Part shown: positions 1-59,038 of the stretch, in pieces
Position numbering within the stretch: the stretch's first letter is position 1
Layout of the letters: every line of letters starts with the position of its first letter
Assembly: GCA_016874845.1 (NCBI GenBank)
Contig: VGSZ01000003.1
Location: 3,146 to 67,145, forward strand
Direction: 5' to 3'
DNA length: 64,000 nt
Source of the DNA: Deltaproteobacteria bacterium
GTDB taxonomy: Bacteria; Myxococcota; UBA727; VGSZ01
Translations under genes and position numbers: made by a program
The notes under the pieces: model-generated
Databases searched by the model: none
What the model was told of the DNA's origin: nothing
Seen by the model: the letters and a program-made list of their open reading frames with translations, nothing else

Positions 1-282
1 TTCCACCGTTCCAACGACGACCTGTATTTCAACGACCCCCTCGCCTTCCTGCCGAACCTGTCGGGCGGGCCGCTCGAGTACGTGCGTCGGCGCGTACACC
101 TGACCGTCGTTGTCGGCCGCGGTGCGCACGAAGAGGGTTGCATCCGCGAGACCGCCGAGTTTGGTGGCTGGCTGAAGAACAAGGGCATCCCCCACCATCT
201 GGCGTTCTGGGGCGAGGACAGCCGCCACGACTACGTGTGGTGGCGCCGGCAGGCTTTGCACTACCTGAACCAGCTGTTCTGA
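1..282 (+). CDS. 3' fragment of an esterase-family (putative esterase / enterochelin-esterase-like alpha/beta hydrolase) gene; 5' end lies outside the window
   Basis: Frame 1 is open from base 1 and ends ...WGEDSRHDYVWWRRQALHYLNQLF*. The C-terminal W-x-W-R-Q motif is typical of the esterase D/Fes family. GC3 is high. Confidence 0.45.
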   Translation, partial: FHRSNDDLYFNDPLAFLPNLSGGPLEYVRRRVHLTVVVGRGAHEEGCIRETAEFGGWLKNKGIPHHLAFWGEDSRHDYVWWRRQALHYLNQLF

Positions 283-7348: not shown

Positions 7349-9777
7349 GCGTGCCCCGCCCGGCGGCGGCGCAGGCCCCGCAGGGCAAACAGCCCGAACA
7401 GGGTCAGCAGCGGGGCCGCGGGCGACGAGCGGCCGCCGGTGTCGCAGCCGCAGCCACCGACCGCGCAGGCACCGGCGAAGTCGAGGACACGTACGTCGTC
7501 GATGGCGGCCTCGAGGCTGCCGTTGCCGCTGGCGATGAAGCGGATCGTGATCTGCTCGGGCACCTCACCGAGGGTCGCGCGCACGTCGATGCGGCCGACG
7601 ACCCAGCCATGGAAGCTGTCGGTGATGGTCTTGCCGGTGACGAAGGTCTTTTCGCCGTCGCCCGAGATCTGCGCTTCGAGCTTGTCGCCGTCCTCGCCGT
7701 CGAACCAGTAGGCGAAGCGCACCTCGGGCGCCGCGGCATCGGCGAGGCTGATCGCCGACGACCACACCGAGGTGTCGCCGTCGAGCTCGCCGCCCTCGCC
7801 CGGGTCGTCGTCGAGCAGGTTCGGCACGTGGTCGTTGCCTTGGCCGGTGACGAACGCGCCCTTGTTGCCCGGGCTCGCGTCGCGCTCGGGGCTGCGCTTG
7901 CTCATGTCACAGGTCATCTCGACGTTGTCGGTGAACGTGAACGCACCCTGACGACGCGCCGTCGTGCCGTCCTTGCCGTCGGGGTTGACGCCCCAGGTGT
8001 GCGACGCGTCGGCGAACTCCTCAGCGTACAGCGTGCGGTAGCCGGGGAACAGGTTCAGCTCCTCGCGCTGTGTCGCTGCGTTGTCGGCCTCGAGCGCCAG
8101 CGACAGCACCGTCGAGGTGCCGCACGGATACTCGGCGGCGATCTCGATCGGGATCTCGATGGTCTTCTGCTCGCCAGCGGCGATGCGACCGATGGCGAAC
8201 TCGGCGTCGACGCTGACGTGCTCGGCCGTATCGCCGTCGACGGAGACGCGCAGGATGGCGCCCTCGACGTCGGCGTACTTCGCGGTCACGGTGAAGGTCG
8301 CGGTGCCCCTGGCGCCCGGCTGCAGGCTGTCGCCGTCGACAGCGAGCTCACCGCCCGACAGGTCCATCTGCGCCAGCAGGCAGTCCTCGTTCATGTCGGT
8401 GCACAGGCGCAGGCGCTTCTCGGTGCGGTCGAGCCACCAGTCCTCCCACGTCGCCAGCGCGAGGTTCAGGTCGTCGGCGATCCCCTGGACCTGCGCGAGG
8501 GTCTGCCCCGGCCGCGTCAGCAGCACCACCGCCTGCCGGAACGTCTTCTGCGTCGCGTCGGGGTCGGGGCAGCGGTTACCCTCGGCGTCGACGACTTCCT
8601 GGATCGTGACGCCGACCTTCGTGCCCGTCGCGCCGATGCGCATGCCGTTGGCCTCGAGCAGCGCGTCCGACGGCAGCTGCAGCACCGCGTCGCCGGGGAT
8701 CGCCTGCCCGTCGATGCCGATCAGGTCGCGGCCCTGCACGTCGAAGCGGGCGCCGTCGATGAAGAAGAACGGCGTCGCCGACGCCACGGGGTTCGCCCCC
8801 AGCGTGTACAGGTCGAGGGTGTTGAAGCGGTCCATGTCGCCGACCAGATCGAACCGGTCACCGTCGACGATCCAGTCCCAGCCGTCCATCACCGAGGCGT
8901 CGGTGTCGACGAAGGCCGCCCAGTGCGAGCCGTCGCGCCCGAGCAGCTTGTTCGACACCGAGCCCGTGCGCGGGTCGACGAAGCGGAGGCCCGACCCCCA
9001 GCGGTGCGCGACCTCCTGGCCCAGCGTCGAGAACACCGCCGAGTCGAAGCTGTCGAAGGGGTGCACCACGCCGTCGTAGTTGCGATCCCAATCCTGCCAC
9101 GTCGCCAGCGAGTTCATGAACACGAAACCCTGCAGCTGCTCCAGCTGACCCTCGGCCTGGTTGAACAGGCAGCCGAACGTCTTGCCCTGGTTGAAGTTGC
9201 ACTCGCCGAGCCCGTCGGTGTCCTGCTTGATGGGGAAATAGTAGGCGGCGACGTTGGCGTCGGCGAAAGTCGTGAAGACGGTGACGAAGTCGATGGTGTC
9301 GCCGAACTGGCGCAGCACCACGCTCAGCATGTCGAACGCGCCGTTGTTGTGGTTGAACCCGATGCCGTTCTGCCCGTTCACGACGGTGTTGTTGGTGCCT
9401 TCGACGATCAGCACGCGTCCCTGCAGCTGCGGCGCAAATGCTCCGCCGACCAGCGGCGGCGCCTCGGGGGAGCGCAGCACGCGGTCGCCGGCGGGCGGCG
9501 GCGCGTGGGCCTCGACATCGTCGAAGACCGTCGCCGGGATCCGCGGCATCGCTGTGCGCTCGATCCACGCGCGGTCGATGACGCCGGGGCGCTTGCTGTG
9601 CAGCACGCGGGCGTTCGCCGGGTCGCTCTGCATCAGCGCATCGTCGACAGGGACCACGTTCTCGTGACCTTTGGCGGGTGGCGTCCGCTGGGGACGCGCA
9701 GCGAGGGCGGCAGGCGCGACGAGCGAGGCGACCAGCGGGAGCGTGCAGGCGGCGAACGGCAGACGGGAGCGGCGCAT
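7345..9777 (-). CDS. Large secreted protein with N-terminal signal peptide and C-terminal MYXO-CTERM-like sorting tail; function unknown
   Basis: ATG at MRRSRLPFAACTLPLVASLVAPAALAA (signal peptide). The C-terminus ...GGCGCDTGGRSSPAAPLLTLFGLFALRGLRRRRAGHA has a Cys cluster, a hydrophobic helix and an Arg-rich end, i.e. a MYXO-CTERM pattern. 810 aa, and the stop overlaps the HAD gene start. Confidence 0.65.
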   Translation of the reverse strand: MRRSRLPFAACTLPLVASLVAPAALAARPQRTPPAKGHENVVPVDDALMQSDPANARVLHSKRPGVIDRAWIERTAMPRIPATVFDDVEAHAPPPAGDRVLRSPEAPPLVGGAFAPQLQGRVLIVEGTNNTVVNGQNGIGFNHNNGAFDMLSVVLRQFGDTIDFVTVFTTFADANVAAYYFPIKQDTDGLGECNFNQGKTFGCLFNQAEGQLEQLQGFVFMNSLATWQDWDRNYDGVVHPFDSFDSAVFSTLGQEVAHRWGSGLRFVDPRTGSVSNKLLGRDGSHWAAFVDTDASVMDGWDWIVDGDRFDLVGDMDRFNTLDLYTLGANPVASATPFFFIDGARFDVQGRDLIGIDGQAIPGDAVLQLPSDALLEANGMRIGATGTKVGVTIQEVVDAEGNRCPDPDATQKTFRQAVVLLTRPGQTLAQVQGIADDLNLALATWEDWWLDRTEKRLRLCTDMNEDCLLAQMDLSGGELAVDGDSLQPGARGTATFTVTAKYADVEGAILRVSVDGDTAEHVSVDAEFAIGRIAAGEQKTIEIPIEIAAEYPCGTSTVLSLALEADNAATQREELNLFPGYRTLYAEEFADASHTWGVNPDGKDGTTARRQGAFTFTDNVEMTCDMSKRSPERDASPGNKGAFVTGQGNDHVPNLLDDDPGEGGELDGDTSVWSSAISLADAAAPEVRFAYWFDGEDGDKLEAQISGDGEKTFVTGKTITDSFHGWVVGRIDVRATLGEVPEQITIRFIASGNGSLEAAIDDVRVLDFAGACAVGGCGCDTGGRSSPAAPLLTLFGLFALRGLRRRRAGHA

Positions 9778-45068: not shown

Positions 45069-46616
<1,548 letters not shown>

Positions 46617-52609: not shown

Positions 52610-53587
52610 ATGGTGACCCGGATGTCGATCCCCTCGCTGCTCTGCGTCGCTTCACTGCTGGCCGCCGCGACGCCGGCGTCGACACCGCTGGCGCCGACGC
52701 CGCCCGCGTCCAGCTCCACCGTGGCGTCCCCGCCCGCGGCGCCGAAGGACGCGTCGACCGCCGCGTCGGTCGCGAGCCCCCCGGCCCCGCCGCGCCCGCG
52801 CGTGCTGGTCCTCGACGTCGCTGGCGACCTCGACCCGAGCGCCCGGGCGACGCTGACGGCGCTGGTCACCGCCCGGCTCGCGCGCTTCGACGGACTCGAG
52901 GTCGTCGCCCGCGACAGCCTCGCTCGCCTCGTCGACGTCGAGGCCGACAAGCAGGCCGCCGGCTGCGCCGGCGACGACGGCGGCTGTCTGGCCGAGGTGG
53001 CCGGGGCGCTCGACGTCGACTATCTCGCCGTCGCCACGGCGGGGCAGCTGGGCGGGACGACGGTGTTCACGCTGCAGCTCGTCGACCGCGGCGGCAAGAC
53101 CAGCGGCCGCGGCACCGCGCAGGTGTCGGCCCTCGACGATCTGGCCGCCCGCGTCACCACCGTCATCGACGAGGTCGGCACGCAGGTCACCGGGGCGGCG
53201 CCTTCGTCCGGCGAGCCCGACGGCGGCGGCGCGCCCGGCGCGGCGCCGCCGTGGCCGACGACGTTGCCGGCGGGGGCGAAGTCGTCGCTGCTCGTCGCCG
53301 GCGGCGTCGGCGCCGGTGTCGGCGTGCTGGCGCTCGCGCTCGGGGTGACGCCGGCGGTGCTGTACTCGGGGGCGGCGGGCGGCCTGCGCACGCTGCGCGT
53401 CGACTACGTCGCAAGCGGCGGCGACCCGGCGCTGGTCGAGCGCGCCGGCGAGCGGCAGCAGGACGCCGTCGCCTTGCAGGGTCTGTGGAACAACGCTGGC
53501 ATCTACGCGGCGTGGGGTGGCTTCCTCGTCGCCGCGGCGGGCGGCGGAGCGATCGCCGCCGCGCTGCTCGTCCCGGAGGCGCCATGA
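52610..53587 (+). CDS. Hypothetical secreted protein: signal peptide, Pro/Ala/Ser-rich linker, globular region, C-terminal hydrophobic anchor
   Basis: ATG at MVTRMSIPSLLCVASLLAAATPAS. C-terminal ...GIYAAWGGFLVAAAGGGAIAAALLVPEAP. High GC3. Confidence 0.5.
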   Translation: MVTRMSIPSLLCVASLLAAATPASTPLAPTPPASSSTVASPPAAPKDASTAASVASPPAPPRPRVLVLDVAGDLDPSARATLTALVTARLARFDGLEVVARDSLARLVDVEADKQAAGCAGDDGGCLAEVAGALDVDYLAVATAGQLGGTTVFTLQLVDRGGKTSGRGTAQVSALDDLAARVTTVIDEVGTQVTGAAPSSGEPDGGGAPGAAPPWPTTLPAGAKSSLLVAGGVGAGVGVLALALGVTPAVLYSGAAGGLRTLRVDYVASGGDPALVERAGERQQDAVALQGLWNNAGIYAAWGGFLVAAAGGGAIAAALLVPEAP

Positions 53588-54309
53588 GCACGCCCGCCGC
53601 CACCCGGCTCCTCGCCCTCGCCATCGTCGTCGTCGTCGTCGGCGGCGGCTGTCCGATCACCGACAACCGCGATGGCATCGGGCGGCTCTGCTCCACCGCG
53701 GCCGCCTGCCCCATCGACCACTTCTGCCTGCTCGACGGCGAGGCCGACGACGACGGCGTCGTGGTGGGGCGCTGCGCGCCGGTGATCGACTACGGCGAGT
53801 GTCCGGCGCCGTCGTGGCCGGTGAAGGCCGGCCGGACGTTCGACGGCAGCCTCGACATCAAGGCCGAGGCCGACCTGCAGCAGCTCGCCGACGTCACCAC
53901 CGTGGGAGGTCGCCTGCGTCTGTTCGACGACGAGGGGGCGTCCCTCGCCCTCGGCGACCTCTGCCGGCTCTCGGGGCTGCAGCGCGTCGAGGACACCCTG
54001 ATCGTGTCCGAGACCGACGTGACCACGCTCGACGGCTTGCAGTCGCTGTCGATGGTCGCCGGCGGCATCGCCATCGTCGACAACCCGAACCTCGTCGACG
54101 TCCTCGGCCTTGCCAGCCTGCAGTTCGCGCTGGTGCCCCCGGGTCGCAACTTCGCCGTGCTGCTGGCGCGCAACGGCAACCTATCCATCGACGCCGTCAA
54201 TGAGCTGGAGGCCGCGCTCGCGCCGGCGGGCATCCGCGTCTTCGGCTGCGGCAACGACCGTGGGAGCCCCTGCACCGTCGACCTGACCGACCTGCTCGGC
54301 CAGCGCTGA
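53584..54309 (+). CDS. Lipoprotein with receptor-L-domain/leucine-rich-repeat-like region
   Basis: ATGA overlap with the upstream gene. Lipobox IVVVVVGGGC. Repeated L-x-x-L-x-x-V/I segments (LQQLADVTTVGGRLRLFD...LIVSETDVTTLDGLQSLSMVAGGIAIVDNPNL...). 241 aa. Confidence 0.55.
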   Translation: MSTPAATRLLALAIVVVVVGGGCPITDNRDGIGRLCSTAAACPIDHFCLLDGEADDDGVVVGRCAPVIDYGECPAPSWPVKAGRTFDGSLDIKAEADLQQLADVTTVGGRLRLFDDEGASLALGDLCRLSGLQRVEDTLIVSETDVTTLDGLQSLSMVAGGIAIVDNPNLVDVLGLASLQFALVPPGRNFAVLLARNGNLSIDAVNELEAALAPAGIRVFGCGNDRGSPCTVDLTDLLGQR

Positions 54310-54415
54310 CGGGCGCAGAGCGGGCGCAGAGCGGGCGCAGAGCGGGCGCAGAGCGGGCGCAGAACGGGCGCAGAACGGGCGCAGAACGGGCGCAGAACGG
54401 GCGCAGAACGGGCGC
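54310..54415 (+). repeat. 11-bp tandem repeat array, ~4x CGGGCGCAGAG followed by ~5x CGGGCGCAGAA, flanked on both sides by GCTGACGG
   Basis: Read directly. It begins immediately after the TGA of the lipoprotein gene and ends ~120 bp upstream of the rseP-like start. Confidence 0.9.
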
Positions 54416-54537
54416 TGACGGAACGCGGACAAGCCGACGGACGGTCGGCGTCGGTGACGTCGTGGCGCGGCCTCCGTCAGCGATCCGTGCGCGCCGGCCC
54501 TTGCCGCCGGCGCCGGTGGTGGCGATGCTGACAGCCA

Positions 54538-56394
54538 ATGTCGCTGCTTGCCCTGTTCATCCTGCTCGGCGTCCTCATCACGGTCCATGAGCTCGGCCAC
54601 TTCATCGTCGCCAAGCTCGCCGGCGTGCGGGTGCTGACGTTCTCGCTGGGCTTCGGTCCCAAGCTCCTGCGTCTCCAGCGTGGCGAGACCGAGTACTGCC
54701 TGTCGGTGCTACCCCTCGGCGGCTACGTGCGCATGTACGGCGACGACGCCAACGAGGAGGTCCCCGCCGACCAGCGGCGCTACGCGTTCCTCGAGAAGCC
54801 GTTCCTCGTGAAGAGCGCCATCGCGCTGGCCGGTCCCGTGGCCAACCTGCTGTTGCCGTTGGCGCTGTTCTTCGCCCTGGGTCTCGGCGAGCAGCAGGCG
54901 CTCGAGGCGCGCGTGGGCACCGTGCTGCCTGACGAGCCGGCGGCCGCCGCCGGCGTGCGCGCCGGCGACCGCGTTGTCGCTGTGGAGGGCGAGCCGGTGG
55001 CCAACTTCGACGCGCTCGTCGAGGCGATCGGGGTCCGCGCCGGCCGGGCGACGACGTTGACGCTCGAGCGCCCTGCCGCGGCCGCGGCTGAGGCCGCGGC
55101 CGCGAAAGCGTCGTCGACGACGCTGAGCGTGACGTTGACGCCTACGGCGGCGAAGTCACCAGACCCGACGGTGACGGAGCCCATCGGTCGCATCGGCCTG
55201 TTGCCCACGCGGCCGCTGCCGCTCGTCGCCGTCCTGCGCGACAGCCCGGCGGCGAAGGCGGGGCTCCTGCGCGGCGACCGCGTCCTGTCGGTGGATGGCG
55301 TCGTCGTCGTCGACGCCGCGGGGCTGCAGGCGGCGCTCGCCGCCGCCGCGCCCACCGCGCCGTTGACGCTGGTGGTCGAGCGCGCCGTCGACGGGCAGAA
55401 GACAAAGGCGCAGCACACCCTCGTCGTCCCGGGCGCCGTCGTCGCTGCGTCCGGTGCTGCCGATACGACCGCGGGCGCTTCGAGCACCGCGGCGCTCGAA
55501 GCGCGGCTCGATCAGCCGGGCGAGACGCCGGCGCCGATCCCGGCGCCGGCGCCCGCCGCCGTCGCGGCGCTGCGCTTCGCGGTGCTCGACACCGAGCTCG
55601 CCGAGCCCGAGCTCGCCGGGCGCGTCGAGGCGACGCGGGCGGCGGTGGTGGTGGCGGTGCAGCGCCAGCGGGCGTCGCGCGGGCTGACGCCGCTCGAGGG
55701 CCTGGTGACAGCGGTGGAGGCCGACAGCCCGGCGGGGGTGCGGGGCGTGAAGGCGGCGGAGCACCGCGTCGTTGCTGTCGACGGCCGCGCGCTGCGGATC
55801 GCTGGCGACCTGCCGCAGGCGTTGCAGGCCGATCCCGACGCCATCCACGTCGTGGGGCTGGTGGACGGCGATGGGCGCGGGGCGGTGTTCGCGTTCCGGA
55901 TGCAGAAGGCGACGCGCCGCGAGCTCGGCGGAGCGCGCATCCTCGGCGTGGGGCTGGCGTCGGCGCAGGGCGACGCCTCTGTGTTCACGCGTCACGTCGG
56001 CCTCGTCGACGCGGCTCGCGGCGCGGTGCGCGATCTGGCGACCAGCGCGCGGGTGGTGTTGTCGGGCTACTGGATGCTGCTGAGCGGGCAGGTGGGGCTC
56101 GACCAGATCGGCGGGCCGGTGTTGATCGCGAACCTCGCCGGCGAGGCGGCGCGTGCGGGGGTGCAGACCTTCGTGGCGACGATGTGCCTGATCAGCGTGA
56201 ATCTGGCCTTCCTGAACCTGCTGCCGGTGCCGGTGCTCGACGGCGGGCACCTGATGCTGTTCACGCTCGAGGCCGTGCGTCGTCGTCGCCTGAGCCTCGA
56301 GGCGCGCGTCCGGGCGACGAAGATCGGGATGCTGTTCGTCGGCGCGTTGATGCTCATCGCGCTCTTCAACGACCTGCGGAGCCTGCTGCCGTGA
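54538..56394 (+). CDS. rseP: RseP-family site-2 zinc metalloprotease (M50) with multiple PDZ domains
   Basis: N-terminal HExxH in TM1 (LITVHELGHFIVAKLAG). ~3 PDZ-like segments (GDRVVAVEG..., GDRVLSVDG..., HRVVAVDG...). C-terminal LDGGHLM motif in a TM. 618 aa. Confidence 0.85.
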   Translation: MSLLALFILLGVLITVHELGHFIVAKLAGVRVLTFSLGFGPKLLRLQRGETEYCLSVLPLGGYVRMYGDDANEEVPADQRRYAFLEKPFLVKSAIALAGPVANLLLPLALFFALGLGEQQALEARVGTVLPDEPAAAAGVRAGDRVVAVEGEPVANFDALVEAIGVRAGRATTLTLERPAAAAAEAAAAKASSTTLSVTLTPTAAKSPDPTVTEPIGRIGLLPTRPLPLVAVLRDSPAAKAGLLRGDRVLSVDGVVVVDAAGLQAALAAAAPTAPLTLVVERAVDGQKTKAQHTLVVPGAVVAASGAADTTAGASSTAALEARLDQPGETPAPIPAPAPAAVAALRFAVLDTELAEPELAGRVEATRAAVVVAVQRQRASRGLTPLEGLVTAVEADSPAGVRGVKAAEHRVVAVDGRALRIAGDLPQALQADPDAIHVVGLVDGDGRGAVFAFRMQKATRRELGGARILGVGLASAQGDASVFTRHVGLVDAARGAVRDLATSARVVLSGYWMLLSGQVGLDQIGGPVLIANLAGEAARAGVQTFVATMCLISVNLAFLNLLPVPVLDGGHLMLFTLEAVRRRRLSLEARVRATKIGMLFVGALMLIALFNDLRSLLP

Positions 56395-56792
56395 TCCGCG
56401 CCCTTTTGCCGTTGCTCGTCTGGGTGGCCGCCGTGGTCTCGGGGGCCTGCGAGCCGGCGGCGCCGGCGGGGCTGGTCGTCGACGACCTGCCGTGCGCGGG
56501 TGGTTCGCTGCCGGCGGACTTCACCGGGCTCGTCGTCGGCGTCCCCTTCGACCACGCCTTCCGCGTTACCGACGAGAGCGGTGGGGCCGTGACCGTCGAC
56601 GCCGTGTTCGTCGCGGGCAGCGATCCGGCGCTCACGCTGCGGCGCGCGCCGTTTGTCGCCGAGGGAGCGCTGGTGGTGCCTTTTCGCGTGCAGTTGACGG
56701 CGCCCGGGCGCGTCGAGGGCACGCTGACGCTGACGCCGCCGCCCGAGGGGCCGGCTTCCTGCGACGTCGCGGTGTCGGCCAGCGCGGGCTGA
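56391..56792 (+). CDS. Small putative lipoprotein, translationally coupled (GTGA) to rseP
   Basis: [22 protein letters not shown] is a signal/lipobox-like segment. 133 aa. High GC3 in frame. Confidence 0.45.
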
Positions 56793-56883
56793 CGACCGGC
56801 TGGCGGCCGGCCCGCCGCCCGGGGCACGGGCGTCCGTTCGTGGATCTGGGATTGACCGGGCAGGGGCCGGGGCTACAACCGCG

Positions 56884-56910
56884 CTGGCACTCGGGTCCCC
56901 CGAGTGCCAA
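56884..56910 (+). promoter_or_regulatory. CIRCE-like HrcA operator (CTGGCACTC-N9-GAGTGCCAA) upstream of groES
   Basis: A perfect 9-bp inverted repeat with a 9-nt spacer matches the CIRCE consensus TTAGCACTC-N9-GAGTGCTAA at 14/18 positions. It sits 60 nt upstream of the groES ATG. A GGAGG SD is at 56957-56961. Confidence 0.7.
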
Positions 56911-56970: not shown

Positions 56971-57267
56971 ATGGCCCAGAAGCTTCGCCCCTTGCACGAC
57001 CGCGTCCTGATCAAGCGTGTCGAATCCGAGACCACGTCCAAGGGCGGGATCATCATCCCCGAGAACGCCAAGGAGAAGCCCCTCGAGGGCGAGGTCATCG
57101 CCGTCGGCACCGGCCGCGTGCTTGAGGACGGCTCGGTGCGCGCGCTGCAGGTGAAGGCCAACGACCGCGTGCTGTTTTCGAAGTACAGCGAGACCGAGGT
57201 CAAGATCGGCGGCGAGAACTTCCTGCTGCTGCGCGAGGATGACCTGCTCGGCATCATCGAGCGCTGA
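56971..57267 (+). CDS. groES: Co-chaperonin GroES
   Basis: [48 protein letters not shown]... is canonical. 98 aa. Confidence 0.95.
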
Positions 57268-57277
57268 AGCGCGTTGA

Positions 57278-59038
<1,761 letters not shown>

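Follow-up and report, generated by a model that had tools for sequence, protein, structure and literature searches.

In a 64,000-nt stretch of contig VGSZ01000003.1 from a Deltaproteobacteria bacterium (hereafter the window), an array of 11-bp tandem repeats separates a lipoprotein-like gene from rseP, which encodes a site-2 protease. We conclude, with a probability of roughly 0.7, that this array is an intergenic minisatellite or variable number of tandem repeats (VNTR) locus of recent origin, specific to its lineage, which arose by replication slippage and most probably has no sequence-specific function. We infer both the slippage history and the neutrality from sequence comparison. The array itself would then be of small importance, as one more slippage-born intergenic repeat in a high-GC genome. 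Of more use is a promoter-like motif between the array and rseP that is kept in six taxa.

Anatomy of the array and its probable slippage origin

The array begins one nucleotide past the TGA of the lipoprotein-like gene and ends 122 nt upstream of the rseP ATG. Direct reading showed that the stop codon (54307-54309) is followed by four units of one variant, five units of a second variant, a partial unit and TGACGG. The individual elements are as follows:

54303-54312, plus strand: left flank GCGCTGACGG, degenerate proto-unit of 10 nt; the TGA stop at 54307-54309 falls within it
54310-54353, plus strand: block 1, four identical CGGGCGCAGAG units (direct reading, Tandem Repeats Finder)
54354-54408, plus strand: block 2, five identical CGGGCGCAGAA units (direct reading, Tandem Repeats Finder)
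54409-54421, plus strand: terminal partial unit CGGGCGC and TGACGG; the right-flank copy of GCGCTGACGG is 54412-54421
54422-54496, plus strand: non-conserved spacer remainder, without alignment to relatives and without a T-tract terminator

Tandem Repeats Finder placed the array at 54309-54415, with a period of 11, 9.7 copies, 97% matches and no indels. Its score of 186 was the highest among the tandem repeats of the window, the second being that of a 12-mer (score 104). The homogeneous blocks measure 44 and 55 nt, and the whole array spans ~110 nt. These data agree with the first-pass annotation of this DNA, which had described about nine or ten units of 11 bp that start at the lipoprotein stop codon: the 4+5 units and the partial unit account for the copy number, and the first unit base directly follows the TGA. 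In the immediate sequence context (54300-54430), CCA GCG CTGA precedes the units and AACGCGG follows TGACGG. The location is non-coding, 3' of a gene with a positionally conserved C-terminus.

The first-pass annotation had also reported a direct repeat on both sides of the array. Such a repeat exists, but it is 10 nt long (54303-54312 and 54412-54421) and not 8 nt as had been claimed. The two GCGCTGACGG copies lie 109 nt apart, which equals 10 + 9x11. When the array is written in the GCGC register, it reads GCGCTGA-CGG, four times GCGCAGAGCGG, five times GCGCAGAACGG and again GCGCTGA-CGG, and the flank GCGCTGACGG differs from the unit GCGCAGAGCGG by one substitution and one base fewer. Judged from this comparison, what had been described as a bracketing direct repeat consists of the two outermost units of the array, each degenerate and 10 nt long. 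The last codons and the stop of the lipoprotein-like gene (CAG CGC TGA) constitute the left proto-unit.

The slippage-mediated expansion that had been suggested earlier fits this arrangement, as the flanks are degenerate units and the variants are sorted into two homogeneous blocks. In the history that we propose, a local GCGCTGACGG 10-mer, which contained the lipoprotein stop codon, would have served as the seed and been duplicated. An inner copy may then have turned into GCGCAGAGCGG through a T-to-A substitution and the gain of one base. Expansion of this unit would have followed, one copy would have mutated from G to A, and a further expansion of both variants could have produced the 4+5 blocks. 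The oldest and most diverged copies would remain at both edges, where they are seen as the bracketing direct repeat. The array is presumably tolerated because it lies in a part of the locus that is free in length and sequence, between the stop of an upstream two-gene operon and the promoter-like motif.

A different origin of the same architecture would be the insertion of a dispersed repeat or mobile element, that is, a 99-nt block with a 10-bp target-site duplication, or membership in a genome-wide repeat family. The perfect 10-bp direct repeat on both sides of the block and the presence of arrays of the same 11-mer in other public contigs speak for such an event. However, the interior of the block consists only of flank-like units and carries no terminal inverted repeats, no second copy is present in the 64-kb window, and none of the other contigs examined for context shares that of this locus; the matches in Streptomyces and others comprise only two units, and the number of such matches is near the expectation from chance and database size. 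We therefore regard an insertion or a dispersed family as highly unlikely.

The searches behind this assessment were as follows. A single unit with at most one mismatch was found in the 64-kb window only within the array itself. A two-unit probe of 22 nt with at most three mismatches gave nine matches in the window, all in the array, compared to 0.01 expected. The possibility of a genome-wide repeat family, which the first-pass annotation had raised as an alternative, thus finds no further copy within the window. Among 185,579 species genomes (one per species, the source genome evidently not among them), the two-unit pattern yielded 10 scattered matches, each with 2-3 units and from unrelated organisms that include Streptomyces, Roseateles and Cryobacterium. 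The three-unit pattern was found in seven contigs of the searched JGI metagenome collection, which does not include the Lake Tanganyika contigs; three of the seven (L025, L029 and L030) carry ~7 units each. The rseP/lipoprotein gene context of the window locus was absent from the four of the seven metagenome contigs for which open reading frames (ORFs) were listed (L025, L026, L028 and L031), and it was not shared by the two of the 10 genome matches that were examined (L021 from Roseateles and L023 from Cryobacterium). The 11-mer arrays in other contigs are probably independent births rather than a family, given how large the databases are and how GC-rich the unit is.

Two of these contigs deserve mention in their own right. 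Contig L031 looks eukaryotic, is lower in GC content and terminates in at least nine units (1-109, minus strand), beside a SulP-like transporter gene. Contig L028 (3001-3141) holds 12.8 units of the close variant GGGCGGGCGCA after a lon-like gene, on a contig of 71% GC.

The array is present in independent assemblies

The array is real and not an assembly artefact. The 4+5 array was found to be identical in three assemblies, namely the window and the JGI contigs L001 and L013, which stem from different samples. Identical genes were detected in the JGI metagenomes 3300020196, 3300020221, 3300020220 and others; the three named metagenomes are water-column samples from Lake Tanganyika (PMC8245535). 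A collapsed or inflated repeat might be suspected since short-k Logan assemblies (k=31) break right inside the array. Their contigs end 30-31 nt into the array from both sides, as is expected for a 31-mer graph with perfect blocks of 44 and 55 nt, and hence carry no information on the unit number. Against an artefact, the three independent large-k assemblies concur on 4+5 units, and both the array (~110 nt) and its blocks are shorter than a standard read. This explanation hence retains next to no probability. In practical terms, the array breaks short-k assemblies, and it could serve as a strain marker for the Lake Tanganyika population.

We found no copy-number difference across the three consensus assemblies, which is a weak test, as they represent one near-clonal lake population with 99.7-100% identity. 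The sample pairs of the relatives described below (L039/L040, L035/L036, L037/L038 and L032/L033) are each 100% identical and hence uninformative on polymorphism. As a side observation, contig L013 departs from the window in its final three bases (1037-1039, ...GGACCCC instead of ...GGACAAG), 9 nt past the right flank repeat. The mismatch probably stems from the contig end, although a variant junction could also account for it.

Orthologous spacers carry unrelated arrays or none

In order to place the array in an evolutionary context, orthologous loci were identified via homologs of the lipoprotein (47-62% identity) and of RseP (67-74% identity), which resulted in five loci: L032, L034, L035, L037 and L039 (equal to L040). 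All five share the gene order ~300-aa gene, lipoprotein gene, rseP. Downstream of rseP, a ~132-aa gene, groES and groEL follow in L035, in L039 and in the NCBI contig of the L034 organism; L037 diverges, and in L032 the contig breaks off inside rseP. The lipoprotein-rseP spacers have a called length of 24-269 nt and are unalignable outside the 33-nt promoter-like motif, with a stretch from stop codon to motif of ~53-228 nt and variable sequence. Their repeat content is the following:

L032 (closest lipoprotein, 62% identity), spacer of 212 nt: no repeat
L034, 1567-1631 and 1679-1714: CGCTGCATCGA x6.1 from 6 nt past the stop, and TGCAGCGGGGC x3.3
L035, 4761-4784: GCCGGGCTGCT x2.2
L039, 2848-2916: 15-mer CGTCGGCGCGGTCGG x4.6, from 4 nt past the same ...CAGCGCTGA stop
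L037, ~55 nt from stop to motif: no repeat

Three of the arrays in the relatives have a period of 11 and one has a period of 15, and they start 4-12 nt past the stop codon. None of their units resembles the unit of the window. As far as these orthologous spacers tell, the array is lineage-specific and is not kept.

Arrays do recur in this spacer, and this recurrence is among the points that weigh against neutrality. Arrays were found in four of the five lineages with a called spacer of at least 94 nt, and three of these four have an 11-bp period, while sizeable arrays with a period not divisible by three are scarce elsewhere (a single one across the 64-kb window). Such a recurrence could indicate selection for the repeat rather than neutrality, although the indication is weak: across the loci of the relatives (33 kb), two of the three strong intergenic arrays lie in this spacer, which makes up about one fifth of the intergenic DNA (p ~0.1). 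The window was left out of this statistic, as it had been chosen for having an array. In addition, a slippage-prone array should vary in number, and no variation was seen in the three consensus assemblies from a population of 99.7-100% identity. Neutrality is also beyond what sequence analysis can demonstrate.

Overall, the recurrence of arrays in the lipoprotein-rseP spacer is suggestive only, and we do not claim a hot spot. A bolder proposal would be that, across this family-level clade of uncultured Deltaproteobacteria (Myxococcota-like), the spacer is a persistent repeat hot spot, in which arrays are selected as an evolvable length knob that sets the degree of insulation between the rseP promoter and transcription or translation of the upstream operon. 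We consider this proposal improbable. If the recurrence did go beyond chance, the locus would offer a natural system to distinguish a neutral stuffer from a tunable spacing between the end of an operon and the next promoter.

A conserved promoter-like motif separates the array from rseP

The one conserved part of the spacer lies directly upstream of rseP:

54497-54529, plus strand: conserved promoter-like motif GGCCCTTGCCG-N10-GGTGGTGGCGATGCT, 33 nt, kept in six taxa
54501-54506, plus strand: putative -35 hexamer TTGCCG within the motif, followed by a 17-nt spacer
54524-54529, plus strand: putative -10 hexamer GATGCT within the motif; the rseP ATG is at 54538

The motif was found in the window, L032, L034, L035, L039 and L037 (4779-4809), whereas the other spacer sequence is not conserved, and its pattern occurs once in the window. 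In the six taxa, the distance from the motif to the start codon (ATG or GTG) is 7-9 nt. The motif is not coding, because this distance shifts by 1-2 nt among the taxa and no in-frame upstream start is present. Visual inspection of the short gap between motif and ATG revealed no Shine-Dalgarno sequence. From the conservation and the geometry, we infer that the motif is a sigma-70-type promoter that gives rise to a leaderless or nearly leaderless rseP mRNA. Its presence in six taxa suggests that the clade makes leaderless rseP mRNA from a promoter of its own. Consensus scans of 53500-55000 detected no sigma-70-like or intrinsic-terminator-like sites. A GGAAC box at 54420-54424 of the type recognized by extracytoplasmic function (ECF) sigma factors was considered as a separate candidate and rejected, as it is not conserved and lacks a -10 element at a suitable distance.

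The array ends ~85 nt upstream of the -35-like hexamer and covers about -117 to -227 relative to the inferred transcription start. It is therefore part of neither the putative promoter nor any rseP leader. This bears on the proposal of the first-pass annotation that copy-number variation could modulate rseP promoter spacing or read-through. At this distance, the array cannot alter the gap between -35 and -10 or the leader. In addition, the closest ortholog (L032) has no array and the other relatives have unrelated ones, which argues against a conserved sequence-specific role in rseP modulation. Adding or losing 11 bp would also leave the helical phase roughly unchanged, whereas a spacing switch needs it to shift. 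The proposed effect on spacing or read-through is thus not supported.

In a broader form of the same idea, the array would be a regulatory contingency or volume-control repeat, in which slippage alters the number of units and thereby tunes rseP transcription or how far the lipoprotein operon is read through. Models for such a repeat are the 7-bp units upstream of hmw1A in Haemophilus and, in Neisseria, the TAAA tract that precedes nadA. The window array with its nine perfect or near-perfect units is slippage-prone by build, and the spacer that holds it, upstream of rseP, bears arrays in relatives as well. Furthermore, intergenic repeats are able to control expression via transcription and 5' untranslated region (5' UTR) structure (PMC12721329). 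However, the array is neither in the -35/-10 spacer, nor between the promoter-like motif and the start codon, nor coding, and its 11-bp step roughly holds the helical phase. Allele differences were not found among the three assemblies, the closest ortholog lacks the repeat, and the fold tests gave no hairpin partner of the kind known from the hmw genes (see below). Finally, rseP is a housekeeping protease of the envelope stress response and not a typical contingency gene. Taken together, these observations leave little room for a contingency function, and we consider the array at most an inert filler that separates the upstream operon from the rseP promoter.

The array shows no predicted structure beyond composition

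We further considered that the array might act as a cis-acting RNA element. As part of the 3' UTR or intercistronic region of the lipoprotein operon, it would be transcribed and could influence where transcripts terminate, how stable they are or whether they continue into rseP, for instance by means of a long-loop RNA G-quadruplex. The sense strand contains ten GGG runs at a fixed 11-nt pitch, no recognizable intrinsic terminator is present between the lipoprotein gene and rseP, and the end of the array is able to pair with 54473-54487, where CCGTCAGC (54475-54482) is complementary to the flank motif. On the other hand, all loops between the GGG runs are 8 nt long and hence outside the canonical G-quadruplex definition; a regular expression for at least four G3 runs with loops of 1-7 nt found no motif in the array. 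RNA folding was no better than that of shuffled sequences, with z = +1.0 for 54296-54540 and z = -0.6 for 54405-54500 (plus strand), and the same was true when the array was folded as DNA (z = +0.5 for one strand and -0.9 for the other). No structure beyond composition was thus predicted by these RNA and DNA folds for the array or the spacer. An inverted-repeat scan found nothing within the array, and a search of Rfam at E-values up to 1 gave no match over it. Lastly, the units of the relatives differ in sequence and in GGG spacing. An RNA element at this site accordingly appears about as doubtful as a contingency repeat. A small GC hairpin (GCCGAC-ggacg-GTCGGC) is located in the spacer remainder at ~54433-54449; the fold z-score of this region (-0.59) is not significant.

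The near-helical period also raises the possibility of a phased protein-binding array or bent DNA, with one iteron- or operator-like site per helical turn upstream of the rseP promoter. Apart from the 11-bp period, which is close to one turn, this would be in line with the position of the array at about -117 to -227 and with the period-11 arrays in L034 and L035. Yet a dinucleotide wedge model predicted the array to be straight: its end-to-end/contour ratio was 0.99, equal to the mean of natural 106-nt windows, compared to 0.60 for an A-tract control. Predicted curvature is hence nil, with positive controls behaving as expected. Likewise, the unit sequence is not kept in any relative, L039 has a period of 15 and L032 no array, and no regulator gene is linked to the locus. 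A phased or bent array is consequently very unlikely.

Comparison with known repeat systems

A neutral slippage-born repeat at this locus would closely resemble the VNTRs of Burkholderia pseudomallei that are used for multilocus VNTR analysis (MLVA). These arrays have 6-16-bp units in 4-10 or more copies, are ~70-75% intergenic and mutate at 1e-5 to 1e-4 per generation; often the motif of one array recurs elsewhere without its flanks (PMC1853098). The window array shares with them the short head-to-tail units, the high-GC genome, the intergenic location and, probably, the slipped-strand origin and the absence of a required function. It differs in density, as B. pseudomallei has about one array per 12 kb compared to one in this 64-kb window, and the polymorphism that defines VNTRs was not observed in the three near-clonal assemblies analyzed here.

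A second parallel is provided by the 7-bp ATCTTTC repeats of hmw1A and hmw2A in Haemophilus influenzae, which are likewise intergenic, upstream of a gene and of a unit length not divisible by three (PMC12721329, PMC8262952). The hmw1A heptamer is located downstream of the promoter and forms part of the transcribed 5' UTR, where it base-pairs with a G-rich arm; it is also highly polymorphic (PMC12721329). In contrast, the window array precedes the promoter-like motif and lacks a pairing partner; it did not vary among the three assemblies, and the gene downstream of it encodes a housekeeping protease.

Several dispersed repeat families offer a further comparison. The mycobacterial interspersed repetitive unit (MIRU)-VNTRs are 46-101 bp long, occupy ~40 dispersed loci and contain small ORFs coupled to the flanking genes. 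The window array is similar to them as a tandem repeat in an intercistronic operon spacer of a high-GC bacterium that abuts an upstream stop codon. Unlike the MIRU-VNTRs, it has an 11-bp unit that cannot hold a reading frame and is present at a single locus in the window. The unit is also unlike those of repetitive extragenic palindromes (REP) and bacterial interspersed mosaic elements (BIME), MIRUs and miniature inverted-repeat transposable elements (MITE), since it is neither palindromic or hairpin-forming nor equipped with terminal inverted repeats, and is confined to one locus in 64 kb. A literature search returned no report of a bacterial intergenic 11-bp tandem repeat.

Flanking genes and further repeats of the window

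The genes on both sides of the array were characterized as follows:

53584-54309, plus strand: 241-aa lipoprotein-like gene, called in independent assemblies too (NCBI tag FJ137_00900)
54538-56394, plus strand: rseP, site-2 protease with an M50 domain, HELGH near the N-terminus and two PDZ domains

The assignment of the downstream gene to RseP by the first-pass annotation was confirmed by Pfam (Peptidase_M50, 1.4e-60, and two PDZ matches) and NCBIfam (TIGR00054 equivalog, 269.8 bits at a cutoff of 147.55). Its lipoprotein assignment for the upstream gene is plausible: the 241-aa protein has an N-terminal hydrophobic segment followed by an invariant Cys23, several further invariant cysteines and a C-terminus of conserved position (five homologs), so that the product may be a secreted lipoprotein. 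No Pfam or NCBIfam family matched this protein. The candidate extension of its reading frame past TGA-C was dropped, as it yields only a low-complexity Arg/Ala/Gly tail. The start of the lipoprotein-like gene overlaps by 4 nt with the end of a 325-aa gene of no recognized family; because of this overlap, the two genes probably form one operon. Downstream, rseP overlaps by 4 nt with the gene of a 133-aa protein, which is followed by groES and groEL.

The cluster at 52610-56792 of the window, comprising the genes of the 325-aa protein, the Cys-rich 241-aa lipoprotein-like protein and RseP, is kept in the five relatives. The 133-aa protein and groES/groEL come after rseP in four of those relatives, while L037 differs after rseP. 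No Pfam or NCBIfam family matched any of the three proteins linked to RseP in the cluster (325, 241 and 133 aa).

Further observations concern the chaperonin genes. A sigma-70-like promoter is located upstream of groES (TTGACC at 56852-56857, 16 nt, TACAAC at 56874-56879). This promoter-like site is followed by an inverted repeat similar to the controlling inverted repeat of chaperone expression (CIRCE), TGGCACTC-N9-GAGTGCCA (56885-56910), and L039 has one too. The CIRCE-like repeat upstream of groES implies a putative control of groESL by HrcA. In L035, a degenerate 9-11-bp array of the GCGCTGAA type (7592-7650, 5.5 copies) extends from the groES stop (GAG CGC TGA), in a stop-codon context as in the window array. 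The groES-groEL spacer of the window shows only a faint trace of such a repeat, GCGCTGAAGCGCGTTGAAC at 57262-57280.

The second-strongest repeat of the window is the 12-mer GACGGACGCGAC (x4.9, 46515-46573, score 104), which lies at the 3' end of a 515-aa ORF (45069-46616). A 9-bp repeat at 58985-59032, GGCGGCATG x5.3, corresponds to the usual C-terminal GGM-repeat tail of GroEL.

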